Source of the DNA: Candidatus Nealsonbacteria bacterium
GTDB lineage: Bacteria > Patescibacteriota > Minisyncoccia > Minisyncoccales > PWPS01
Length of the DNA: 33,900 bases
Assembly: GCA_003554445.1 (NCBI GenBank)
Contig: PWGJ01000004.1
Span: forward strand, 1-33,900
Direction of reading: 5' to 3'
The notes under the pieces are model-generated. The model saw only the letters and a list, made by a program, of their open reading frames with translations. It was not told the origin of the DNA and made no database searches. Every line of letters begins with the position of its first letter. The first letter of the stretch is position 1. Position numbers and translations under genes: made by a program. Shown here piece after piece: positions 2,202 through 23,527 of the stretch.

Positions 2202-3821
2202 ATGAAAAAATATATATTTGTCGCCGGCGGAGTGATGTCCGGTATCGGAAAAGGAATCGCTACCGCATCCATAGGTAAAATACTTAAAAGCAAAGGTTTT
2301 GGAGTCACTGCAGTTAAAATAGATCCTTATGTAAATGTTGATGCGGGGACTATGAATCCGGTCGAGCACGGTGAAGTTTTTGTAACCAAGGATGGTTCCG
2401 AGTGTGATCAAGATATCGGTAATTATGAAAGATTTTTAGGAAGGGAGCTGACTAAAAAAAATTATATTACTACCGGAAAAGTGTATAAAGCGGTGATAGA
2501 AAGGGAGAGGAATTTGGATTATGACGGAAAGTGCGTGGAGGTAGTTCCCGATATACCGAATGAAACAATTAAAAGAATTAAGAGGGCAGCAAAAGAAGAC
2601 GAAGCTGATTTTACATTAATTGAAATAGGGGGGACGATAGGCGAATATCAAAATTTATTATTTTTAGAAGCAGCCAGAATGATGAAGTTGGATGAACCTG
2701 AGAAGGTTCTTTTTATATTGGTAAGTTATCTTCCCACCCCGAAAACAATAGGGGAGATGAAGACAAAACCGACTCAAAATGCAAGTCGCAGACTAAACGA
2801 AGCGGGTATTCAACCCGATATGATATTGGGTAGAGCCGAACAACCTCTTGACGAACCGAGAAAAAACAAGATATCCAATTTTTGCAATGTTGAAAAAAAA
2901 TATATAATATCCGCACCGGATGTAGATTCAATATATGATATTCCGCTAAACTTCGAGCGAGAAGAATTAGGTAATATGATTTTGGATAAATTCAATATGA
3001 AAAAGCAAGATACCGAGATGAAAGAGTGGAAAAAAATGGTAAAAGCATCTAAAAACGGAGGAGACAAAGTTTCAATTGCAATAGTTGGAAAATACTTTGA
3101 AACCGGCCAATTCACCTTAACTGATTCATACATTTCTGTGATTGAGGCTGTAAAACATGCATCATGGGATCAAGAGATAAGTGTTGACATAGACTGGATT
3201 TTTGCTGAAGAATATGAAAAAGATGAAGAAAAAATAAAAGAGTTGGATAATTATGACGGTGTCATTATTCCCGGTGGATTCGGAAGTAGGGGAGTGGAAG
3301 GAAAAATTAAAACAATAAACTATTGTAGAGAAAATAAGATCCCATTTTTGGGTCTTTGTTTGGGTATGCAGCTCTCGGTAATTGAGTTTTCTAGAAACGT
3401 CGCGGGTCTTAAAAAAGCAAACTCTACTGAATTTGATAGTAATTGTCAATACCCGGTAATAGACATGATGGAGGAGCAGAAAGAGCTTATTGAGAATAGT
3501 AATTTCGGGGGAACTATGAGATTGGGCGATTACAAGTGTAAACTAAAAAAGGGGACAAAAGCAAATACTTTATATGAAAAAACCGATATCCTGGAAAGAC
3601 ATCGGCATCGCTACGAATTTAATGATAAATTTAAAGATACTTTAAAAAAATCCGGCTTAATATTATCCGGAAAGAATCCGGAGACCGGTTTGGTTGAGAT
3701 TGTTGAGCTGGAAGAACATCCCTTCTTTGTAGGAGTTCAATTTCATCCGGAATTTAAATCCGCACCGCTCAAGCCTCATCCGCTTTTCAAAGAGTTTTTA
3801 AAAACTGCTAAAGAACATTGA
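2202..3821 (+). CDS. pyrG: CTP synthase
   Basis: [49 protein letters not shown]. Confidence 0.98.
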
Positions 3822-4080
3822 CTTTTTTAACCTTCTTTCTCTTTCCGTTGAAATTCTTTTTTGTTTTTGTCTGAAACTCAACAACACCTTCGGTAGCCGC
3901 ATAAAGAGTGTCATCACTTCCTTTGCGTACATTTTTTCCGGGTATGAATTTGGTTCCTCTTTGTCTTACAATAACAGATCCAGCTTTTGCTTTCTGACCA
4001 CCGAAAAGTTTAACTCCTAAATATTTAGGCTTAGAGTCTCTACCGAGTCTTGTTGTTCCAGATGATTTTGTTGTTGCCAT
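3808..4080 (-). CDS. rpmA: 50S ribosomal protein L27
   Basis: [28 protein letters not shown]. Confidence 0.97.
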
Positions 4081-4097
4081 AACTTTGGATAAATTTT

Positions 4098-4286
4098 ATG
4101 AAACTAAAACTTATATTAACAGAATTAAGTGATATTGTCAACGAAAAATTATTTTTAACAATTTTAATTGTCATACTTACGGCAACACTCTTTTATATGA
4201 TCGGGTGGATTTCTTGCTCCATGCAAGAAAGTAAACCACTGGAAATTGAAGATTTTTCAAAAAATAATAAAATAGGGTACTTTTAG
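4098..4286 (+). CDS. Small single-TM hypothetical protein divergent from rpmA
   Basis: 62 aa, one hydrophobic helix followed by a KPLEIE tail, fills the gap. Start codon uncertain. Confidence 0.55.
   Translation: MKLKLILTELSDIVNEKLFLTILIVILTATLFYMIGWISCSMQESKPLEIEDFSKNNKIGYF
4113..4141 (-). promoter_or_regulatory. sigma70-type promoter for rpmA
   Basis: Minus strand TTGACA-N17-TAATAT with TG extension. Confidence 0.65.
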
Positions 4287-4358
4287 GCGAAAAACAGGCT
4301 TTTTTAAGTAAAAGAGCCTCTCAGAGCTCATTAGAGCGATTTTTATACACTTTACTAC

Positions 4359-5339
4359 TTACTCCTCATCTTTTTTTGATCTATTTTCAAGATTTTGACC
4401 GCTATGATGCTTTTTGTGAATCTCTTTTAATTTTTTGCTAGTTATGTGAGTATAGATTTGTGTCGTGGCAATATTTTTATGACCCAAAAATTCTTGTATA
4501 ACACGAAGATCAACACCTTGAGCTAGAAGATCCGTGGCATAACTATGACGTAAAGTATGAGGAGTAGTTTTTTGTGGAAGCCCGGCGCTTTTGACATACT
4601 TCTTAACGATATTTTCAATTGATCGAATGGTGATTCTGCGATCTCCGGTTTTGGGTCCTCGATATCTGATAAAAAGAGCTTTCTCATCATCGTCTCTAAT
4701 TGACAAATATTTCTCAATAGCTTTTATTGATCTGGGTGAAAAATAAACCGTTCTAGTCCTGTCTCCCTTACCGGTAACAACAACTTCCAGAGCCTCTCCG
4801 TCACTTAAGTCTTTGGTATTGATCTGCTCTCGATCCAAATCAACCAGCTCAGAGACTCTTAGACCGGTAGAAAATAAAGTTTCGAGGATAGCCCTGTCTC
4901 TAATACCGATTCTTCCGGTTTCGTCGGGTTCATTTAATAACTTTTTAATCTGATTAAGTGTTAAAAAATTCAAAGATTTACTATCATCCTCTTTAGTCAA
5001 TTTAACTTTTTCTGCAGGAAGAGAATCTATATTCCAATCAGCAAAAAAATTGAGTAAATTTCTTACCGCTATAAGATAGTAATTTCTGGTTTTTTTGCTT
5101 ATCGGCTGATTTTTGTGATTTTTCTGTTTTGAAAGATAAACTCGATAATCCCAAATATGTTGATCACTTAACTCGTGAGGTAGAAGATTTTCATTTCCTG
5201 ATTTTTTTAGCCATTTCTCGAAGCGGACCAGAAAACGTTGGTAAGTTTCTTGTGATTTGGGAGAGAGGCCTCTTTCTATATCCAAATATTGAAAAAACTC
5301 GTCAAAGTGCTCAATTATCGGTTTTTTTGATTTTTTCAT
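4359..5339 (-). CDS. Tyrosine recombinase, XerC/XerD family
   Basis: Core-binding N-domain. Catalytic residues intact: TGLRVSEL (R), GKG (K), HTLRHSYAT (HxxR), LGH, TTQIYTH (Y). Confidence 0.95.
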   Translation of the reverse strand: MKKSKKPIIEHFDEFFQYLDIERGLSPKSQETYQRFLVRFEKWLKKSGNENLLPHELSDQHIWDYRVYLSKQKNHKNQPISKKTRNYYLIAVRNLLNFFADWNIDSLPAEKVKLTKEDDSKSLNFLTLNQIKKLLNEPDETGRIGIRDRAILETLFSTGLRVSELVDLDREQINTKDLSDGEALEVVVTGKGDRTRTVYFSPRSIKAIEKYLSIRDDDEKALFIRYRGPKTGDRRITIRSIENIVKKYVKSAGLPQKTTPHTLRHSYATDLLAQGVDLRVIQEFLGHKNIATTQIYTHITSKKLKEIHKKHHSGQNLENRSKKDEE

Positions 5340-5373
5340 AGGAAGTAGTGTACCGGGTTAAATTTTGTTATAA

Positions 5374-5401
5374 ACTTCGATAAAGTTACATTATGCGAAG
5401 T
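5374..5401. other. dif-like recombination site, 11-6-11: ACTTCGCATAA-TGTAAC-TTTATCGAAGT (minus strand)
   Basis: Imperfect palindrome with dif geometry. Shares CGCATAATGTA with E. coli dif. Lies 34 bp upstream of the recombinase ATG. Confidence 0.8.
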
Positions 5402-5415
5402 TTTAAATCTGTACC

Positions 5416-5445
5416 ATTATACCACCTATCTTTCACTGCAGTCAA
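5416..5445 (-). promoter_or_regulatory. Promoter of the recombinase gene
   Basis: Minus strand TTGACT-N18-TATAAT with TGn extension. Confidence 0.7.
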
Positions 5446-5471
5446 CCAACTTCTTATTTTTACGATAATGA

Positions 5472-5813
5472 TTAAAAGGAGAAAGGTTCTCGAATCTTCT
5501 CTAAAAGAGAATCAATAAAAGAATTTACGGATTCAACTATTGTGTCCCTGACCCTTATAAAAAAATTGTCTTTTCGTTCTTCGACCTGATCTTCAATTAT
5601 CTTTTGACGTCTTTCAACTTCATCAGTAGCTCTTCCGGTAATAATCTCTATTCTTCTCAAGACACTCTCCGATGTATCAATTAAATTTCCTGCCGCTATA
5701 GCTGCGGGACTCTCTTGCTTTTCATCTTCAATCGCCTCCCCCGTCCCAAAAACGGGTCCTCCGATTAAGATTATTAGACTTATGGTTAAAACCGTTAAGA
5801 AAAGCTTCTTCAT
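5472..5813 (-). CDS. Hypothetical exported protein
   Basis: Signal-peptide-like N-terminus, helical body, ATGA overlap with gltX stop. Confidence 0.7.
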   Translation of the reverse strand: MKKLFLTVLTISLIILIGGPVFGTGEAIEDEKQESPAAIAAGNLIDTSESVLRRIEIITGRATDEVERRQKIIEDQVEERKDNFFIRVRDTIVESVNSFIDSLLEKIREPFSF

Positions 5814-7324
5814 AAAACTTTTTTAGCCTCTTTTAATCTGCTTGAAGACTCTTTCTTGCCTAAAATATATGCTACTTCAAAAGGTCCGGCACTCGCCTCT
5901 TTTCCGGTAAGAGCTGCTCTCAGTGGCCATAAAAATTTGCCTCTGTCATCATATTCGTTAGCTTTTTCCAGAAGTTTTTCACTTACTTCATCTTGAGTCC
6001 AATTTTCTATATTAGATAATACCTTTTTAGCTTTGTCAATGGAGTCAGCTACTTCTTCCGGAGACATATCCTTCCACTGTAATAGTTTAAAATCAACGTT
6101 TACCGGCTTAAAGAAATAGTCCGTCACTTCGGTTATTTCGGATAAGGTTGTTATTCTGTCTTGATGATCCTTTATTAAAATATTCAAAACTGAAAAACTG
6201 AATTCTCTGCCGTCATCCGTTTCGTAGTTAGCTTTTGGAGCCTCATTACCGAGAGAAGTTTTTTTCTTTCTGTCATCAGCCGGCTTTAAGTAACCTTCTT
6301 CGACCAAGTAAGGAATGCAGAGCTTAGTAAGTCTTTCCGGGTCAGCTTCTTTCAAGTGTAAGGTGTTTATATATTCCAACTTTTCTTTATTGAATACCGC
6401 ACCCGCTTTTTTACACCTATCCATAGTAAACTCTTTTTTTAATTCCGTAAGTGTAAAAAACTCTCTGTCATCACCGGGACTCCATCCTAAAAGAGCCAAG
6501 AAATTGACTAGAGCTTCGGGGAGAAAACCCTCCTTTTTATATTCCGATACGGAAACCGCACCGAATCGTTTGGACAATTTTGATTTATCAGGTGCAAGAA
6601 TAAGAGGTAGATGAGCATAAGTAATCGGATCAAATTTCAATGCTTTTTGAATCAAGATCTGCTTGGGTGTGTTTGAAATGTGGTCTTCTCCCCTAATTAC
6701 ATGTGAAATATTCATTTCGTAATCATCAATCGCACACGCAAGATTATAAAGAGGACTCTTTTCATCCTTAGCAATTACATAATCACCCATTATCTCAGTT
6801 TCAAAACTTACTTCTCCCCTAATTAAGTCTTTAAACTTAACCACCTCCCCCTCTTTTACTTTCATACGGATTACGAAACTTTTACCTTTTTCCAGTTTTT
6901 CTTTAATTTCATCTTCTCCAAGATCTCGACAAACTCCCGAATATGTAGGAGCTTCCCCTTTCTTTCTCTGCCGCTCCCTTTCTTTTTCCAACTTTTTCTG
7001 ACTACAAAAACATCTGTAAGCATGATCTTCAACTAGAAGTTTTTTAATGTATCGCTTATAAGTGTCGCTTCTTTCCGATTGTCTATAAGGTCCGTAATCA
7101 CCGCCTTTCTGAGGTCCTTCATCATAGTCCAGACCCAACCACTTCAAACTGTCAATAATATTTTTTTCATACTTTTCTTCTGATCTCTCTTGGTCGGTGT
7201 CCTCTATTCTTAAAACAAAACTGTCCTCTTTCTTTGTAAAAAGATAATTGGCTAAAGCAATTCTTGCTGAACCGACATGAAAAAGTCCGGTCGGTGATGG
7301 AGCGAATCTAACTCTTTTGTTCAT
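5810..7324 (-). CDS. gltX: Glutamate--tRNA ligase
   Basis: RVRFAPSPTG, HVGS (HIGH-like), LRIEDTD, VIRGEDH, KLSKR. Confidence 0.97.
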   Translation of the reverse strand: MNKRVRFAPSPTGLFHVGSARIALANYLFTKKEDSFVLRIEDTDQERSEEKYEKNIIDSLKWLGLDYDEGPQKGGDYGPYRQSERSDTYKRYIKKLLVEDHAYRCFCSQKKLEKERERQRKKGEAPTYSGVCRDLGEDEIKEKLEKGKSFVIRMKVKEGEVVKFKDLIRGEVSFETEIMGDYVIAKDEKSPLYNLACAIDDYEMNISHVIRGEDHISNTPKQILIQKALKFDPITYAHLPLILAPDKSKLSKRFGAVSVSEYKKEGFLPEALVNFLALLGWSPGDDREFFTLTELKKEFTMDRCKKAGAVFNKEKLEYINTLHLKEADPERLTKLCIPYLVEEGYLKPADDRKKKTSLGNEAPKANYETDDGREFSFSVLNILIKDHQDRITTLSEITEVTDYFFKPVNVDFKLLQWKDMSPEEVADSIDKAKKVLSNIENWTQDEVSEKLLEKANEYDDRGKFLWPLRAALTGKEASAGPFEVAYILGKKESSSRLKEAKKVL

Positions 7325-19289: not shown

Positions 19290-20294
19290 ATGAAAAGAGC
19301 TTTATTGCAAAAAAAGAAGGAAAATGAATTGGTGCAGTGTTTAAATTGTGCACATCTGTGTCTTGTCGATGAGGGTGGTTTCGGAATATGTAAAATGAGA
19401 CAAAACAAAAACGGGGAATTAAAAGTTTGCAACTACGGAAAAGTAGCCGCTCTGAATATCGATCCGATTGAAAAAAAGCCTCTTTATCATTTTTTACCGG
19501 GAACTGAAAGTTTGTCTTTGGGAGTCCCCGGATGTTCATTTAACTGTAAAAATTGTCAAAATTGGAGTCTTTCCCAGAAAAAAAAGGAGGATATAAACGG
19601 AAGACGGTTATCTCCCGCAAATATAGTTAAAATCGCAAAAGATAAAAAATTAAAATCAATCTCTTACACCTACAGTGAGCCGATTATTTTTTTGGAGTAC
19701 GCCTTGGATATAATGACAAAAGCAAAGAAAGAGGGAATTAAAAACGTATGGGTTTCAAACGGCTATTTTTCGGACCTGTCTCTGCAAAAGATTTTGCCGT
19801 ATATCGACGCGATAAATATTGATTTAAAAAGTTTTTCGAAAAACTTTTACAAGGATGTATGTAATGGAAGACTGGAGCCCGTCTTGGATGCAATTAAGAA
19901 GATACAAAAAGATGACGACACCTGGTTGGAGCTGACGACACTGCTTATTCCGGGTTACAACGATGATACTTCGGAAATAACTGACATGGCTCGATTTATT
20001 GCCGACTTAGATAAAGATATCCCCTGGCATCTGTCCCGATTTTCAAGTCGCTTTTCCAAAGATATGAAAGATATCCCAGATACTCCGATGGAGACAATGG
20101 AAAAGGCTTATCGGATTGCAAAAAACGCGGGCCTGAACTACGTCTATCAAGGTAATGTCGTAAATGGTAAAACGGATACCCATTGCCCCAAATGCAACTT
20201 TACAGTTATTCAAAGAGAAAATTATAAAACAAAAAGATTTGACGAAAAAGATTGTTGTCCAGATTGCAATCGAAAAGTCAAACTAATTAATTAA
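19290..20294 (+). CDS. amrS: AmmeMemoRadiSam system radical SAM enzyme
   Basis: IDPIEKKPLYHF, CxxxCxxC (GCSFNCKNCQNW), YTYSEP, C-terminal CxxC pairs. Confidence 0.95.
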   Translation: MKRALLQKKKENELVQCLNCAHLCLVDEGGFGICKMRQNKNGELKVCNYGKVAALNIDPIEKKPLYHFLPGTESLSLGVPGCSFNCKNCQNWSLSQKKKEDINGRRLSPANIVKIAKDKKLKSISYTYSEPIIFLEYALDIMTKAKKEGIKNVWVSNGYFSDLSLQKILPYIDAINIDLKSFSKNFYKDVCNGRLEPVLDAIKKIQKDDDTWLELTTLLIPGYNDDTSEITDMARFIADLDKDIPWHLSRFSSRFSKDMKDIPDTPMETMEKAYRIAKNAGLNYVYQGNVVNGKTDTHCPKCNFTVIQRENYKTKRFDEKDCCPDCNRKVKLIN

Positions 20295-20295
20295 A

Positions 20296-21078
20296 ATGAG
20301 CTTAAATTTTGCAGCCGTAACTCCTCATCCACCTATCATAATTCCGGGCGTCGGAAACCAAAAAGATTTGACGAAAGTAGCCGATACGGTAGACGCAATG
20401 GAAAAAATTGCAAAAGGGTTTGACGAAAAAGAGGTCGAAACCGTAATTATAATTACACCTCACGGCTCCTCTTCAAAAAAGAAATTCAATATATCCGGAG
20501 CCGAATGCTTCACCAGTTCACTTCCGGGAGCTCTTCTCAGTTTTGACGGAGACTCGGAGCTTGCAGAAAAATTAACCGATTTAAAAGACGTAAAAAAAGT
20601 TCAAAGCGGTAATCTGGATCACGGTGCCTCGGTTCCTCTTTACTTTCTTAAAGAGAAGCGATCCGATTTTAAAGTTGTGCCGATTACCTACTCCCAAAAA
20701 AGTAGAAAAAAGCACTTTGATTTCGGAAAAAAAATATTCGAATTGATTAAAAAGGAAGAAAAAAATATCGGGGTAATAGCATCCGGAGACCTTTCCCACA
20801 AGTTAACTCCGTTCGCTCCGGCCGGCTTTTCAAAAGAAGGCAAAAAGTTTGACGAGAAATTAATTCAGCTTTTAAAAAAAGAGGAGACTAAAAAGATTTT
20901 GGAGATTGATCAAAAGCTAATCGATGAAGCAGCGGAGTGCGGATACAGATCAATTTTAGTCTTGCTCGGAATACTTTCAAACATCGATTATGAATCAAAA
21001 GTACTATCATACGAAGGTCCATTCGGTGTCGGTTACGGAGTAGTTCAATATTTAATTAAAAATGAAAATCAGACTTAA
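20296..21078 (+). CDS. amrB: AmmeMemoRadiSam protein B (Memo/LigB-like)
   Basis: PHPP, ITPHG, LDHGASVPL, IASGDLSH, AAECG, SYEGPFGVGY. Confidence 0.88.
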   Translation: MSLNFAAVTPHPPIIIPGVGNQKDLTKVADTVDAMEKIAKGFDEKEVETVIIITPHGSSSKKKFNISGAECFTSSLPGALLSFDGDSELAEKLTDLKDVKKVQSGNLDHGASVPLYFLKEKRSDFKVVPITYSQKSRKKHFDFGKKIFELIKKEEKNIGVIASGDLSHKLTPFAPAGFSKEGKKFDEKLIQLLKKEETKKILEIDQKLIDEAAECGYRSILVLLGILSNIDYESKVLSYEGPFGVGYGVVQYLIKNENQT

Positions 21079-21355
21079 AAAATTTGACGGGAATATAGCT
21101 TATTTAATGCGAAGACTGGGATACCATCCCGACAAAAAATCAAGAAAAAATCAACTCTCTTTTTCCAGACCATTGCGCAATGGTAAATTCCCACGATTTC
21201 ACATCTATTATAATTCGAAGGAAAATGTATTAAATCTTCACCTGGATCAAAAAGCTCCTCGATATCATGGAGCATCGGATCATGCTGCCGAATATGATGG
21301 AAAACTGGTAAAACAAGAGTACGATAGAATAAAATCTTATGTCAGCAATAATTAA
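21062..21355 (+). CDS. Hypothetical His-motif protein inserted between amrB and amrA
   Basis: Overlaps both neighbours by 17 nt; FPRFH, LHLDQK and HAAEYDG motifs. Confidence 0.8.
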   Translation: MKIRLKKFDGNIAYLMRRLGYHPDKKSRKNQLSFSRPLRNGKFPRFHIYYNSKENVLNLHLDQKAPRYHGASDHAAEYDGKLVKQEYDRIKSYVSNN

Positions 21356-21875
21356 TTTGGTTAAAAAAACAGTTGAAAGTTATGTAAAGGAGCAAAATTT
21401 TCCTGACCCTCCTGAAGAGCTATCTCAAAAAATTAACAATGGAAGCTCCGGAGTCTTTATTACCATAAAAAAACAAGGTGATTTGCGGGGATGTATGGGA
21501 ACCATTGAATCCGAGGAAAATATAGTAAAGCAGATCGTTTCGAGCTCGATAAGCGCGTGCCGAGACCCTAGATTTAAGAGTATAAAAGAGAGTGAACTTC
21601 CCGAGCTTAGTTATGAAGTAAATATCTTAAAAGAACCAAGGGAAGTTATGACGGTCAGTGATTCAAAGATCCCTGAAAATATACCGTTGTTGCAACCTGA
21701 AAAAGAAGGGATTATTGTAAAATCAGGAAATAAAACCGGCCTGCTTTTACCCGGCATTGAGGGAATCGATTCTCCGGATAAGCAGTTAAAATTAGCTTTA
21801 AGGAAGGCAGGAATTGACTTGACTAAAAATTATAAGATATATAAATTTGAAACCGATAAATATGAAGGAATGTAA
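21339..21875 (+). CDS. amrA: AmmeMemoRadiSam protein A (AMMECR1 domain)
   Basis: GVFITI, LRGCMGT, DPRF, GLLLP. Confidence 0.93.
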   Translation: MSAIINLVKKTVESYVKEQNFPDPPEELSQKINNGSSGVFITIKKQGDLRGCMGTIESEENIVKQIVSSSISACRDPRFKSIKESELPELSYEVNILKEPREVMTVSDSKIPENIPLLQPEKEGIIVKSGNKTGLLLPGIEGIDSPDKQLKLALRKAGIDLTKNYKIYKFETDKYEGM

Positions 21876-22611
21876 AAAAATAATTAATTATTTTCCGGAT
21901 TTTTTGAAAAGTATTCAAAACTCCAACCTTTCCAAATCAACTTTAAATTGCCACGAAAGACATCTCAGTCAATTTAAAAGATGGCTACTTGCAAATAATT
22001 TGGAAAATATAAAACCGAATGAATTAACTGAGGAAGATATTAAAAATTATATATCTTTTTTGAAAAACAAAAAAAACTCCAGGGGTGACATCATCAGCAA
22101 ACAGACACAAAAAAATTATATAAGAACAATTCGTTACTTTTTAAAGTTTTTAGAAAATAAAGACCTGGATTGCACTTCTTCAGAAAAAGCCAGACTTGAA
22201 AAAAAGATAGAAAGCGATATTCAAAAGCTGGTTAATTATTACTTTAAAACAAAAGGTCTTGATTTGGAAGATATTAAAAAAAGTGCAAGAAAAAAGAAGA
22301 TAATATATTCCAGATATACCAAGCCGGCAAAGGATCTAATTGAACTGGCCGGATCTCTGGATGAAGCCAAAAAAGCCGTCAAAAAGGTGGCCGACTGGGC
22401 AAATTCCAGAAACCTCGACTATGCCATAGAAACCGTCTTTAAAAAATGGCCCGAATTGGACAACTTAAAGCCGAAGAAAAAAGAAAAGAAGCCTTATTAT
22501 AAAGGAGATAAAATGATTAAATCACGAGGAAAATGGTACGTTATAGACAGTCAAGGTGAATGGTTTGAATTTGCAGGAAAAGAAGAGGATATAAATTGGA
22601 AAGAAGAATAA
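21862..22611 (+). CDS. Xer/integrase core-binding (SAM-like) domain fused to an unknown C-terminal domain, no catalytic domain
   Basis: First ~112 aa align by hand with the N-domain of the 4359-5339 recombinase (~37 identities, two 1-aa gaps). No R-K-HxxR-H-Y. Likely ATG start at 21862. Confidence 0.8.
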   Translation: MKECKKIINYFPDFLKSIQNSNLSKSTLNCHERHLSQFKRWLLANNLENIKPNELTEEDIKNYISFLKNKKNSRGDIISKQTQKNYIRTIRYFLKFLENKDLDCTSSEKARLEKKIESDIQKLVNYYFKTKGLDLEDIKKSARKKKIIYSRYTKPAKDLIELAGSLDEAKKAVKKVADWANSRNLDYAIETVFKKWPELDNLKPKKKEKKPYYKGDKMIKSRGKWYVIDSQGEWFEFAGKEEDINWKEE

Positions 22612-22615
22612 AAAT

Positions 22616-23527
22616 ATGCACATAACATTTGCCGGAACCTCAAACTTCAGTGCAAGAACTTTAAATTCTCTCTTAAAGGAGGGAGTTAAAATAAGTTCGG
22701 TAGTTACACCTAAAGACAAACCCAAAGGAAGAGGTCAAAAGAGCAAACCAACTCCCGTCAAAAAGATAGCGATAAAAGAAGGTCTCGAAATCAACAATAG
22801 TCTTGAAGAAGTTATTGGAAAAACCGATCTTGTAGTGGTGTCCGCATACGGAAGAATAATTGAAAAAGAGCTCTTGGAAAGACCGAAGCACGGCTTCCTC
22901 AACCTTCATCCTTCCCTACTTCCGAAATATAGAGGACCAACTCCGATACAGGCTGCAATCTTAAATGGTGATAAAAAGACCGGAATTTCAATAATATTAA
23001 TGGATGAAAAAATTGATCATGGACCAATTTTAAGTAAAAAGGAGATAGATTTGACCGGAAACGAATATTACAAGGGCTTGGAAAATAAATTATCAACACT
23101 CGGTGGAAAATATTTATCCAAAACTATAAAGAAATGGACCGAAAATAAGATTGATCCGCAACCTCAAGACGAATCAAAAGCCTCTTATACCGGGCTGCTA
23201 ACCAAGGAGGACGGAAGAATTAATTGGAAGGATAGAGCGATAGATATAGAAAGGCAAATCCGAGCTTATAATCCTTGGCCCGGATCTTATAGTACATTGA
23301 ACGGAAAAATTGTAAAAATACACAAAGCTGATGTCCAAAAAATAACCGAAGACGGTCCCTTCGGACAACCCGGAAAGACTTACTTGGGTACAAATGAAAA
23401 AATCGCCGTTCAGACCGGCGAAGATTTTTTGTTGATTGAAGAGTTGCAGATTGAAGGCAAAAAAAAGACTTCATCAAAACAGTTTTTGCAAGGAAATATC
23501 GATCTTATTGGAAAGACTTTAGGTTAA
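22616..23527 (+). CDS. fmt: Methionyl-tRNA formyltransferase
   Basis: DKPKGRG, SAYG, NLHPSLLPKYRGPTPIQ, RAYNPWPG. Confidence 0.97.
   Translation: MHITFAGTSNFSARTLNSLLKEGVKISSVVTPKDKPKGRGQKSKPTPVKKIAIKEGLEINNSLEEVIGKTDLVVVSAYGRIIEKELLERPKHGFLNLHPSLLPKYRGPTPIQAAILNGDKKTGISIILMDEKIDHGPILSKKEIDLTGNEYYKGLENKLSTLGGKYLSKTIKKWTENKIDPQPQDESKASYTGLLTKEDGRINWKDRAIDIERQIRAYNPWPGSYSTLNGKIVKIHKADVQKITEDGPFGQPGKTYLGTNEKIAVQTGEDFLLIEELQIEGKKKTSSKQFLQGNIDLIGKTLG

Follow-up and report, generated by a model that had tools for sequence, protein, structure and literature searches.

The closest described counterpart of the locus examined here is XerS/difSL of streptococci and lactococci, in which a single recombinase has its site directly upstream of its gene, the two form one module at the terminus, and the gene often has its own terminator behind it (PMC1914069, PMC5357621; these and the other papers with PMC numbers are cited from the portions available). 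Autoregulation and a penalty on insertions at dif have been put forward as speculations for this layout (PMC1914069). Single-recombinase dimer resolution on partly palindromic sites is also described for XerH/difH of Campylobacterales and XerL/dif of Legionellales, and XerH needs FtsK (PMC3325230, PMC9765430). In the transposon Tn5401, the irs site of the tyrosine recombinase TnpI lies upstream of the recombinase's own gene and holds promoters, and binding modulates expression; it is a precedent for one site acting as both recombination site and operator (PMC7157771). Xer-related recombinases of candidate phyla have been united in a 'Cand' subgroup, for which no site is given in the portion of the paper available (Smyshlyaev et al. 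2021, PMC8138268). Here we describe a comparable arrangement in a 33,900-nt stretch of DNA from Candidatus Nealsonbacteria (contig PWGJ01000004.1; this whole stretch is called the window below), where a 28-nt dif-like site lies between a promoter and the gene of a tyrosine recombinase, xer.

This arrangement would be a self-contained single-recombinase Xer/dif module that resolves chromosome dimers, the 28-bp site being dif and the adjacent gene the only Xer. On the sequence evidence set out below we give this reading a probability of roughly 80%. In the literature searched (supplementary datasets lay outside the search) no paper was found that describes the module, or dimer resolution in bacteria of the candidate phyla radiation (CPR, Patescibacteria), for which an Xer/dif module is apparently undescribed.

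The site, its promoter and the recombinase

The features that make up the module are as follows.

5416–5445, minus strand: sigma-70-like promoter of xer (TTGACT, 18-nt spacer, TG-TATAAT)
5402–5415, minus strand: 14-nt gap from the -10 box to the site; the predicted transcription start falls here, with the site then at about +9
5374–5401, minus strand: dif-like core site (left arm ACTTCGCATAA, 5401–5391; centre TGTAAC, 5390–5385; right arm TTTATCGAAGT, 5384–5374)
5340–5373, minus strand: 34-nt leader between the site and the ATG
4359–5339, minus strand: xer, a 326-aa tyrosine recombinase (Phage_integrase, 142 bits, plus a SAM-like N-terminal, core-binding, domain)

The site, ACTTCGCATAA-TGTAAC-TTTATCGAAGT, has the 11-6-11 layout and near-symmetric outer arms ascribed to it in the preliminary description, and is flanked by AAA...TTT. 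Compared by eye, its arms agree with each other at 8 of 11 positions; the outer six form a perfect palindrome and positions 7–9 differ (CAT against a mirrored ATA). It also lies, as described, between a strong promoter and the ATG of an intact recombinase. In a consensus scan the promoter (5445–5416) matches 11 of 12 consensus positions, has a TG before the -10 box and is the top promoter-like site within 4000–6000; the transcription start is placed from the usual spacing. With up to three mismatches the site is matched once in the window and never in 100 shuffles, and with up to seven it is matched once in the whole assembly (955,240 bp, 121 contigs). Palindromy does not discriminate alone: among 503 left-arm-like anchors in the same genome the real site scores 6/7, as do four others. 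Rfam and transfer RNA scans of the window gave no match.

The six residues of the R-K-H-R-H-Y active site (R161, K191, H261, R264, H287 and Y296) are present in the window protein and invariant in 25 of 25 aligned orthologues. Among NCBIfam models the protein scores 233 bits for XerC, 232 for XerD, 210.9 for XerA and 116 for XerS. The closest solved structures are XerA of P. abyssi (4A8E, 125 bits), XerD (110 and 106) and XerA of T. acidophilum (5HXY, 103), XerH is a distant match (55 bits), and the PDB matches at E≤1e-10 include no Cre chain. By these scores the protein is best assigned to the classical Xer type, nearest to archaeal XerA and XerD. The label 'Cre-like' in the preliminary description therefore suits the working principle and one arm of the site, and not the family membership.

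The host genome (955 kb) is estimated to be 100% complete with 3.9% contamination. Its single match to PF00589 is xer, its sole tyrosine recombinase; no second Xer was found in it. The best matches to an E. coli-type dif in the same genome reach 20/28, at two positions, which are taken as chance. Neither a second Xer nor a canonical dif elsewhere, which together would have counted against the proposal, was thus found in the host genome. The host FtsK (712 aa) carries a gamma domain (93.5 bits).

Conservation of the site and its linkage to xer

From the genus, family and order of the host, 41 genomes were sampled, and every one has an xer homologue. These were scanned with the pattern ACTTCGYATAA-N6-TTTAYCGAAGT, allowing up to three mismatches. 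The pattern occurs in 30 genomes, of which 29 have a single match and one has two, and a reversed control pattern gave one match. Of the 31 matches, 29 share the strand of xer and precede it by at most 460 nt. One further match sits in the terminal part of a contig, which overlaps the end of the contig carrying xer; the last (three mismatches, on another contig) is probably due to chance. Families without the pattern have variant sites of the same build and in the same place, such as ATGTCGCACAA-TGATGG-TAAAGCGACGT.

An exact-pattern scan that covered 185,579 species, with one genome apiece, returned 40 stretches with one match each, labelled Nealsonbacteria, Wildermuthbacteria, Paceibacterota, Parcubacteria, Patescibacteria, 'uncultured Candidatus Saccharibacteria' or 'bacterium'. 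In all 36 that can be assessed xer starts 5–241 nt downstream on the same strand (one xer alignment overlaps the site by 4 nt); the other four end before xer could be assessed. A metagenome scan gave 71 stretches, with xer adjacent in 69 of 69 assessable cases and two cut by the stretch end. These metagenomic sites have 20 different central hexamers, and the adjacent proteins are 51.5–78.8% identical to that of the window. The motif is thus conserved upstream of orthologues, and it is single-copy, with one site in the host assembly and one in 29 of the 30 pattern-bearing relatives.

Information content per position, across 27 unique contexts, is 1.91 and 1.80 bits in the two arms and 1.15 in the centre; it drops to 0.54 and 0.39 in the flanks, the last figure being that of the weakly conserved 25 nt that follow the site. 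Since the pattern itself was used to choose the contexts, the arm values are in part circular. A less circular test used sites picked by a short left-arm anchor only. In these the outer seven arm positions are complementary in 187 of 287 cells, as against 47–74 of 287 after a shift of the right arm by one or two positions. The two sides of the site change together, with T.A (20 sites) or G.C (8) at position pair 3/26 and C.G (18) or T.A (7) at pair 2/27. Such joint change appears to be the trace expected from a symmetric dimer with drifting specificity. Arm positions 7–9 are conserved as well, yet are not complementary (by eye).

A site beside a recombinase gene is typical of integration modules, a comparison drawn in the available part of PMC1914069, and one genus carries extra degenerate, inverted dif-like sites together with a duplicated leader between site and xer. 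Instead of serving chromosome maintenance, the pair could accordingly belong to an element that is or once was mobile, as its integrase and attachment site, or the site could chiefly be a landing pad for such elements. However, there is one site per genome, the pair keeps its place among housekeeping genes across an order, and xer is present in 41 of 41 relatives. No match to the exact site was found in 2.9 million viral contigs, and no stretch among the 40 and the 71 has two exact copies. An origin of this kind is very unlikely, and the conservation of the pair fits better with the resolution of chromosome dimers.

Several irregular loci were seen among the relatives. In one genome (G038:C6:26785–27721) the xer homologue is in two overlapping pieces (residues 4–153 and 149–313, in open frames of 171 and 170 aa) and may be frameshifted; a dif-like site is still there, 109 nt upstream of xer. 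The extra degenerate half-sites of the one genus, some of them inverted, lie between site and xer (L022:1232–1500, L025:1010–1500, L026:1–405, L017:1360–1500 and L015 with L097). Relatives in that genus also carry a tandem leader duplication, at which one assembly breaks, and comparable inverted copies occur in G025, G039, L176 and L179. Folded as single strands, the arrays give long hairpins (-19.2 kcal/mol, z -6.2; -33.8 kcal/mol, z -11.7). They might be integration scars, folded single-strand substrates or leader RNA structures.

In population DNA, contigs of four sequencing runs from two studies cover the region, and no difference is listed inside 5374–5401. One contig of run X6 (5313–5947) spans the site. 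In runs X2–X4 contigs start or stop at the site borders (5372–5374 and 5400–5403), the summed depth rises there, and the loose ends enter other sequence. Logan assemblies use 31-letter words. We take these breaks to mean that the same 28–32 letters occur in co-occurring relatives with different flanks, a situation also seen among assembled genomes; the breaks are no evidence of recombination.

Position on the chromosome

In the window, genes left of ~3.8 kb are on the plus strand and those from 3.8 to 19.2 kb on the minus strand, and the GC skew turns from about +0.18 to about -0.19. The maximum of the cumulative skew is at 3714, ~1.7 kb from the site. A whole-chromosome comparison comes from the relative G041, a single contig of 946,732 bp (G041:C1). 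Its global cumulative GC-skew maximum is at 665,283 and its site at 665,504–665,531, 221 bp apart; the skew minimum is at 135,796 and dnaA at 207,103, which places the site ~458 kb from dnaA, or ~48% of the chromosome. Four further contigs gave the following positions.

G007:C1, 97.8 kb examined: skew maximum at 49,069, site at 49,862 (~0.8 kb apart)
G008:C3, 69 kb examined: skew maximum at 65,582, site at 63,936 (~1.6 kb apart)
G012:C1, 55 kb examined: skew maximum at 49,607, site at 49,613 (6 bp apart)
G028:C1, 80 kb examined: skew maximum at 71,321, inside xer (70,521–71,474)

In these four and in the window the gene strands turn from plus to minus at the skew maximum. The expectation that the site would lie near the GC-skew terminus is borne out by G041, the four contigs and the window; one relative, G042, departs from it and is considered below.

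Extent of the module within the class

Across the class, 94 of 101 genomes have an xer homologue at E≤1e-30, and 93 of these 94 have just one, so that a single Xer is the rule. Dif-like upstream sites are recognisable for the closer homologues, at 52–57% identity by tblastn (L171–L179), and are not clear for most of the group at 41–44%. The module was seen only with orthologues at least 51.5% identical to the window protein.

Two complete genomes from other orders, G122 and G061, have a single xer 46% identical to the window protein. It lies 44 kb from dnaA in the former (G122:C1:551568–596694) and 30 kb in the latter (G061:C1:74509–105718), in both at the cumulative-skew minimum. No recognisable dif was found in front of either gene. 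A loose dif pattern (TCGNAYAA-N6-TWWANCGA, up to one mismatch) was no commoner in G122, G061 and G109 than a reversed control, and its only exact match was the known site of G041. The contrast between site-less xer genes near dnaA and site-bearing xer genes at the terminus suggests that the pair is tied to the terminus through the site. The module therefore appears, from these comparisons, to be confined to one clade of the class; its earlier attribution to CPR bacteria holds for that clade and was too wide for the group as a whole.

Spacing to the promoter and possible autorepression

Of 45 unique contexts, 39 have a promoter with a score of 9/12 or more ahead of the site. Between -10 box and site the gap measures -3 in 13 of the 45 and +10 to +15 in 25. 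In the -3 class the box is TATACT and runs into the left arm, three bases being shared between the end of the box and the beginning of the site. Of 47 gene-anchored upstream regions, 29 have a promoter-site pair, with a gap of 11 nt in 11; this 11-nt class spans families with different arms and unrelated spacer sequences. With the usual start ~7 nt past the -10 box, the site would begin at about +5 to +9 or would cover the start itself. Protein bound at or near the predicted start would hinder RNA polymerase, and bound recombinase would probably limit its own transcription. Autorepression through the site can tentatively be proposed on this basis, with the case for it not far from balanced. 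The support gained by the earlier suggestion of an autorepression operator is positional, namely the conserved promoter-site spacing and, in some lineages, the overlap with the -10 box.

The fixed spacing and the overlap with the -10 box would also suit a palindrome that is an operator only, bound by the recombinase or by another dimeric regulator, without strand exchange, the true dif being elsewhere or absent. Paired arm change is expected from any symmetric DNA binder. However, an operator has no reason to sit at the chromosome skew switch, as the site does, and the xer genes that are without a site lie near dnaA. The 11-6-11 layout, an inner arm (CGCATAA) in common with E. coli dif and a variable centre fit a recombination core, and no other dif candidate was found in the host genome. 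A purely regulatory role is thus quite unlikely, and the site is better read as the dif of a dimer-resolution system, whether or not it also acts as an operator.

Weighing the dimer-resolution reading

The proposal of a homomeric dimer-resolution system draws its support from one recombinase, one site, the conservation of that site upstream of xer, the skew switch and the gamma domain of FtsK, with no rival dif found in the host genome. In the mechanism envisaged, two Xer monomers would bind the two near-palindromic arms of each dif copy, and the two copies on a dimeric chromosome would synapse as a homotetramer; the conserved Arg-Lys-His-Arg-His-Tyr active site would then exchange strands across the 6-bp centre. 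At the septum, FtsK would probably bring the dif copies together. Binding and cleavage of the site by Xer, and its control by FtsK, are thus predicted steps; the linkage of site and gene and the joint arm change give indirect support to the pairing of this protein with this site.

Several observations weigh against this interpretation or against parts of it. In the relative G042 (contig C2, first 240 of 395 kb) the site is at 44,404 and the skew maximum at 107,373, 63 kb off; the site there marks the end of strongly positive skew, and a flat stretch then reaches the maximum. Skew follows gene orientation in these genomes. A 4-kb block of plus-strand genes inside the minus-strand replichore of the window (19290–23527) has locally positive GC skew, which indicates that skew follows the coding strand, and short contigs cannot therefore separate a skew switch from a strand switch; the whole-chromosome view is that of G041 only. 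With regard to FtsK control, the gamma domain of the host FtsK stands beside the 8-mers of G041, among which no strongly polarised word resembling the FtsK-orienting polar sequences (KOPS) was found; the top 8-mers are 70–80% skewed, purine-rich and of coding type. The window protein falls under every NCBIfam equivalog cut-off, with 233 bits against 335 for XerC (TIGR02224), 232 against 330 for XerD (TIGR02225), 210.9 against 220 for XerA (NF040815) and 116 against 267 for XerS (NF003462, matched in the catalytic domain only). The promoter is absent in 6 of the 45 contexts and in 18 of the 47 gene-anchored regions, so that the operator arrangement is common and not universal; in the lineages without it the upstream gene ends just before the site. 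Finally, the leader folds as RNA (-9.4 kcal/mol, z -1.95), with 10 of 200 shuffles folding as well.

The last of these observations, and the covariation of the outer arms, which also fits a stem, would be compatible with an inverted repeat that acts as RNA, in the form of a 5'-leader hairpin governing the stability or translation of the xer mRNA. However, the conserved arm positions 7–9 are not complementary, and the window has no Rfam match. In the 13 contexts where the -10 box lies over the left arm, transcription would begin within the site, leaving that arm out of the RNA. The terminus position is also left unexplained by a hairpin. An RNA element is extremely unlikely, and the repeat is better explained as the DNA target of Xer.

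Neighbouring genes

The genes and signals around the module are listed here.

2202–3821, plus strand: pyrG; the gene strands switch at its junction with the L27 gene
3808–4080, minus strand: rpmA, ribosomal protein L27, the downstream neighbour, convergent with pyrG
4314–4329, minus strand: terminator-like hairpin and T-run (consensus scan), starting 30 nt past the xer stop
5472–5813, minus strand: 113-aa protein without a Pfam family, the upstream neighbour
5810–7324: gltX, preceding the 113-aa open reading frame

With a terminator-like hairpin 3' of it, xer would be a one-gene unit. The neighbours of the xer-site pair are housekeeping genes, and a small Lys/Glu-rich open reading frame ends just before promoter and site in relatives too (by eye). 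The 3' ends of pyrG (plus, end 3821) and rpmA (minus, end 3808) share 14 nt at the strand switch. Further away, a 254-aa open reading frame (21847–22611, plus strand) has in its N-terminal 120 aa a SAM-like core-binding domain with 33% identity to that of the recombinase; the remaining ~130 aa match nothing in Pfam, and a catalytic domain is lacking. At least eight relatives have a similar match on the xer contig, at a distance of 12–18 kb from the gene. The protein could be a DNA-binding paralogue that recognises a related sequence.

Significance

The genomes of CPR bacteria are very small, and cultivation is mostly not possible; in this instance a whole system, with gene, target, promoter and place on the chromosome, can be read from sequence. 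The site could serve as a marker for the replication terminus in fragmented CPR assemblies. The module would be an independent second case of the streptococcal site-plus-gene arrangement, and because the promoter is visible here, unlike in the streptococcal case, the old idea of autoregulation becomes directly testable. Dozens of natural recombinase-site pairs with differing arms and centres are on offer for biochemistry, and within one class some lineages have xer and dif at the terminus while others have xer near the origin without a recognisable adjacent site.

A further idea concerns the promoter-dif-xer unit as a whole. As the same 28 bp lie between promoter and xer, any element that inserted at dif would separate the gene from its promoter. 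The unit could on this view be a self-limiting, insertion-resistant module, in which the same 28 bp are both the resolution site and the operator of the only recombinase, although we regard this combination as rather doubtful. If it were true, arms and protein that change together while remaining adjacent would make of this clade a natural collection of single-protein recombinase-target pairs, each with a target legible in the genome sequence. Such pairs could be orthogonal tools for genome engineering, and one arm is already loxP-like.

Comparison with known systems

The resemblance to Cre/loxP of phage P1 consists in one recombinase on a near-palindromic site. The match of 24/34 positions to loxP reported in the preliminary description was reproduced in one orientation, with 22/34 in the other (half by half against P1 lox). 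A lox match of at least 24 occurs at 1 of 67,732 window positions, the site being the best, and one arm agrees with the lox repeat at 11 of 13 positions. The P1 record also has lox upstream of cre, just downstream of a promoter, P4cre, that reads towards cre. However, lox has 13-nt repeats with 8 nt between them (record coordinates), in contrast to the 11-6-11 build here; no Cre chain was matched at the threshold given above, and the site here is chromosomal, at the terminus, and not that of a phage.

In comparison with TnpI/irs, the difference is one of task, as the transposon system resolves cointegrates with the help of accessory repeats and is not a chromosomal terminus site. XerH differs in being a distant relative of the window protein by structure match, and no statement placing difH or the dif of XerL in the leader of the recombinase gene was found in the available portions of PMC3325230 and PMC9765430.

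The XerCD/dif system of E. coli and most bacteria has, like the present one, a 28-bp terminus site with a 6-bp centre. The window site and E. coli dif (MG1655 record) have in common the 11-mer CGCATAATGTA, made up of inner left arm and centre, which bears out the shared stretch described before; over the whole site the identity is no higher than 17/28, a value equalled by an unrelated position within the same 2.5 kb. XerC and XerD are about equally close to the window protein, and a partner FtsK with a gamma domain is present. The differences are that there is one gene here and not two paralogues, and that the outer arms here are palindromic. The xerC and xerD genes are also far from dif (PMC1914069), whereas xer adjoins the site here.

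The archaeal XerA system is alike in having a single recombinase on a conserved 28-bp dif (PMC5357621). XerA is also the nearest solved structure to the window protein, which nevertheless misses the XerA cut-off. Archaeal XerA is not known to need FtsK, whereas the host here is a bacterium whose FtsK has a gamma domain.

The organisation, finally, is most like that of XerS/difSL. The window protein is not XerS, with less than half of the score at the XerS cut-off (116 bits against 267), and difSL is 31 bp long with an 11-bp centre (PMC5357621), in contrast to the 28 bp and 6-bp centre found here. In the present case, moreover, a promoter can be recognised, at a conserved distance from the site. 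Judged on sequence features, the module is organised like XerS/difSL but appears to combine a classical-type Xer with a classical 11-6-11 dif that has palindromic outer arms.

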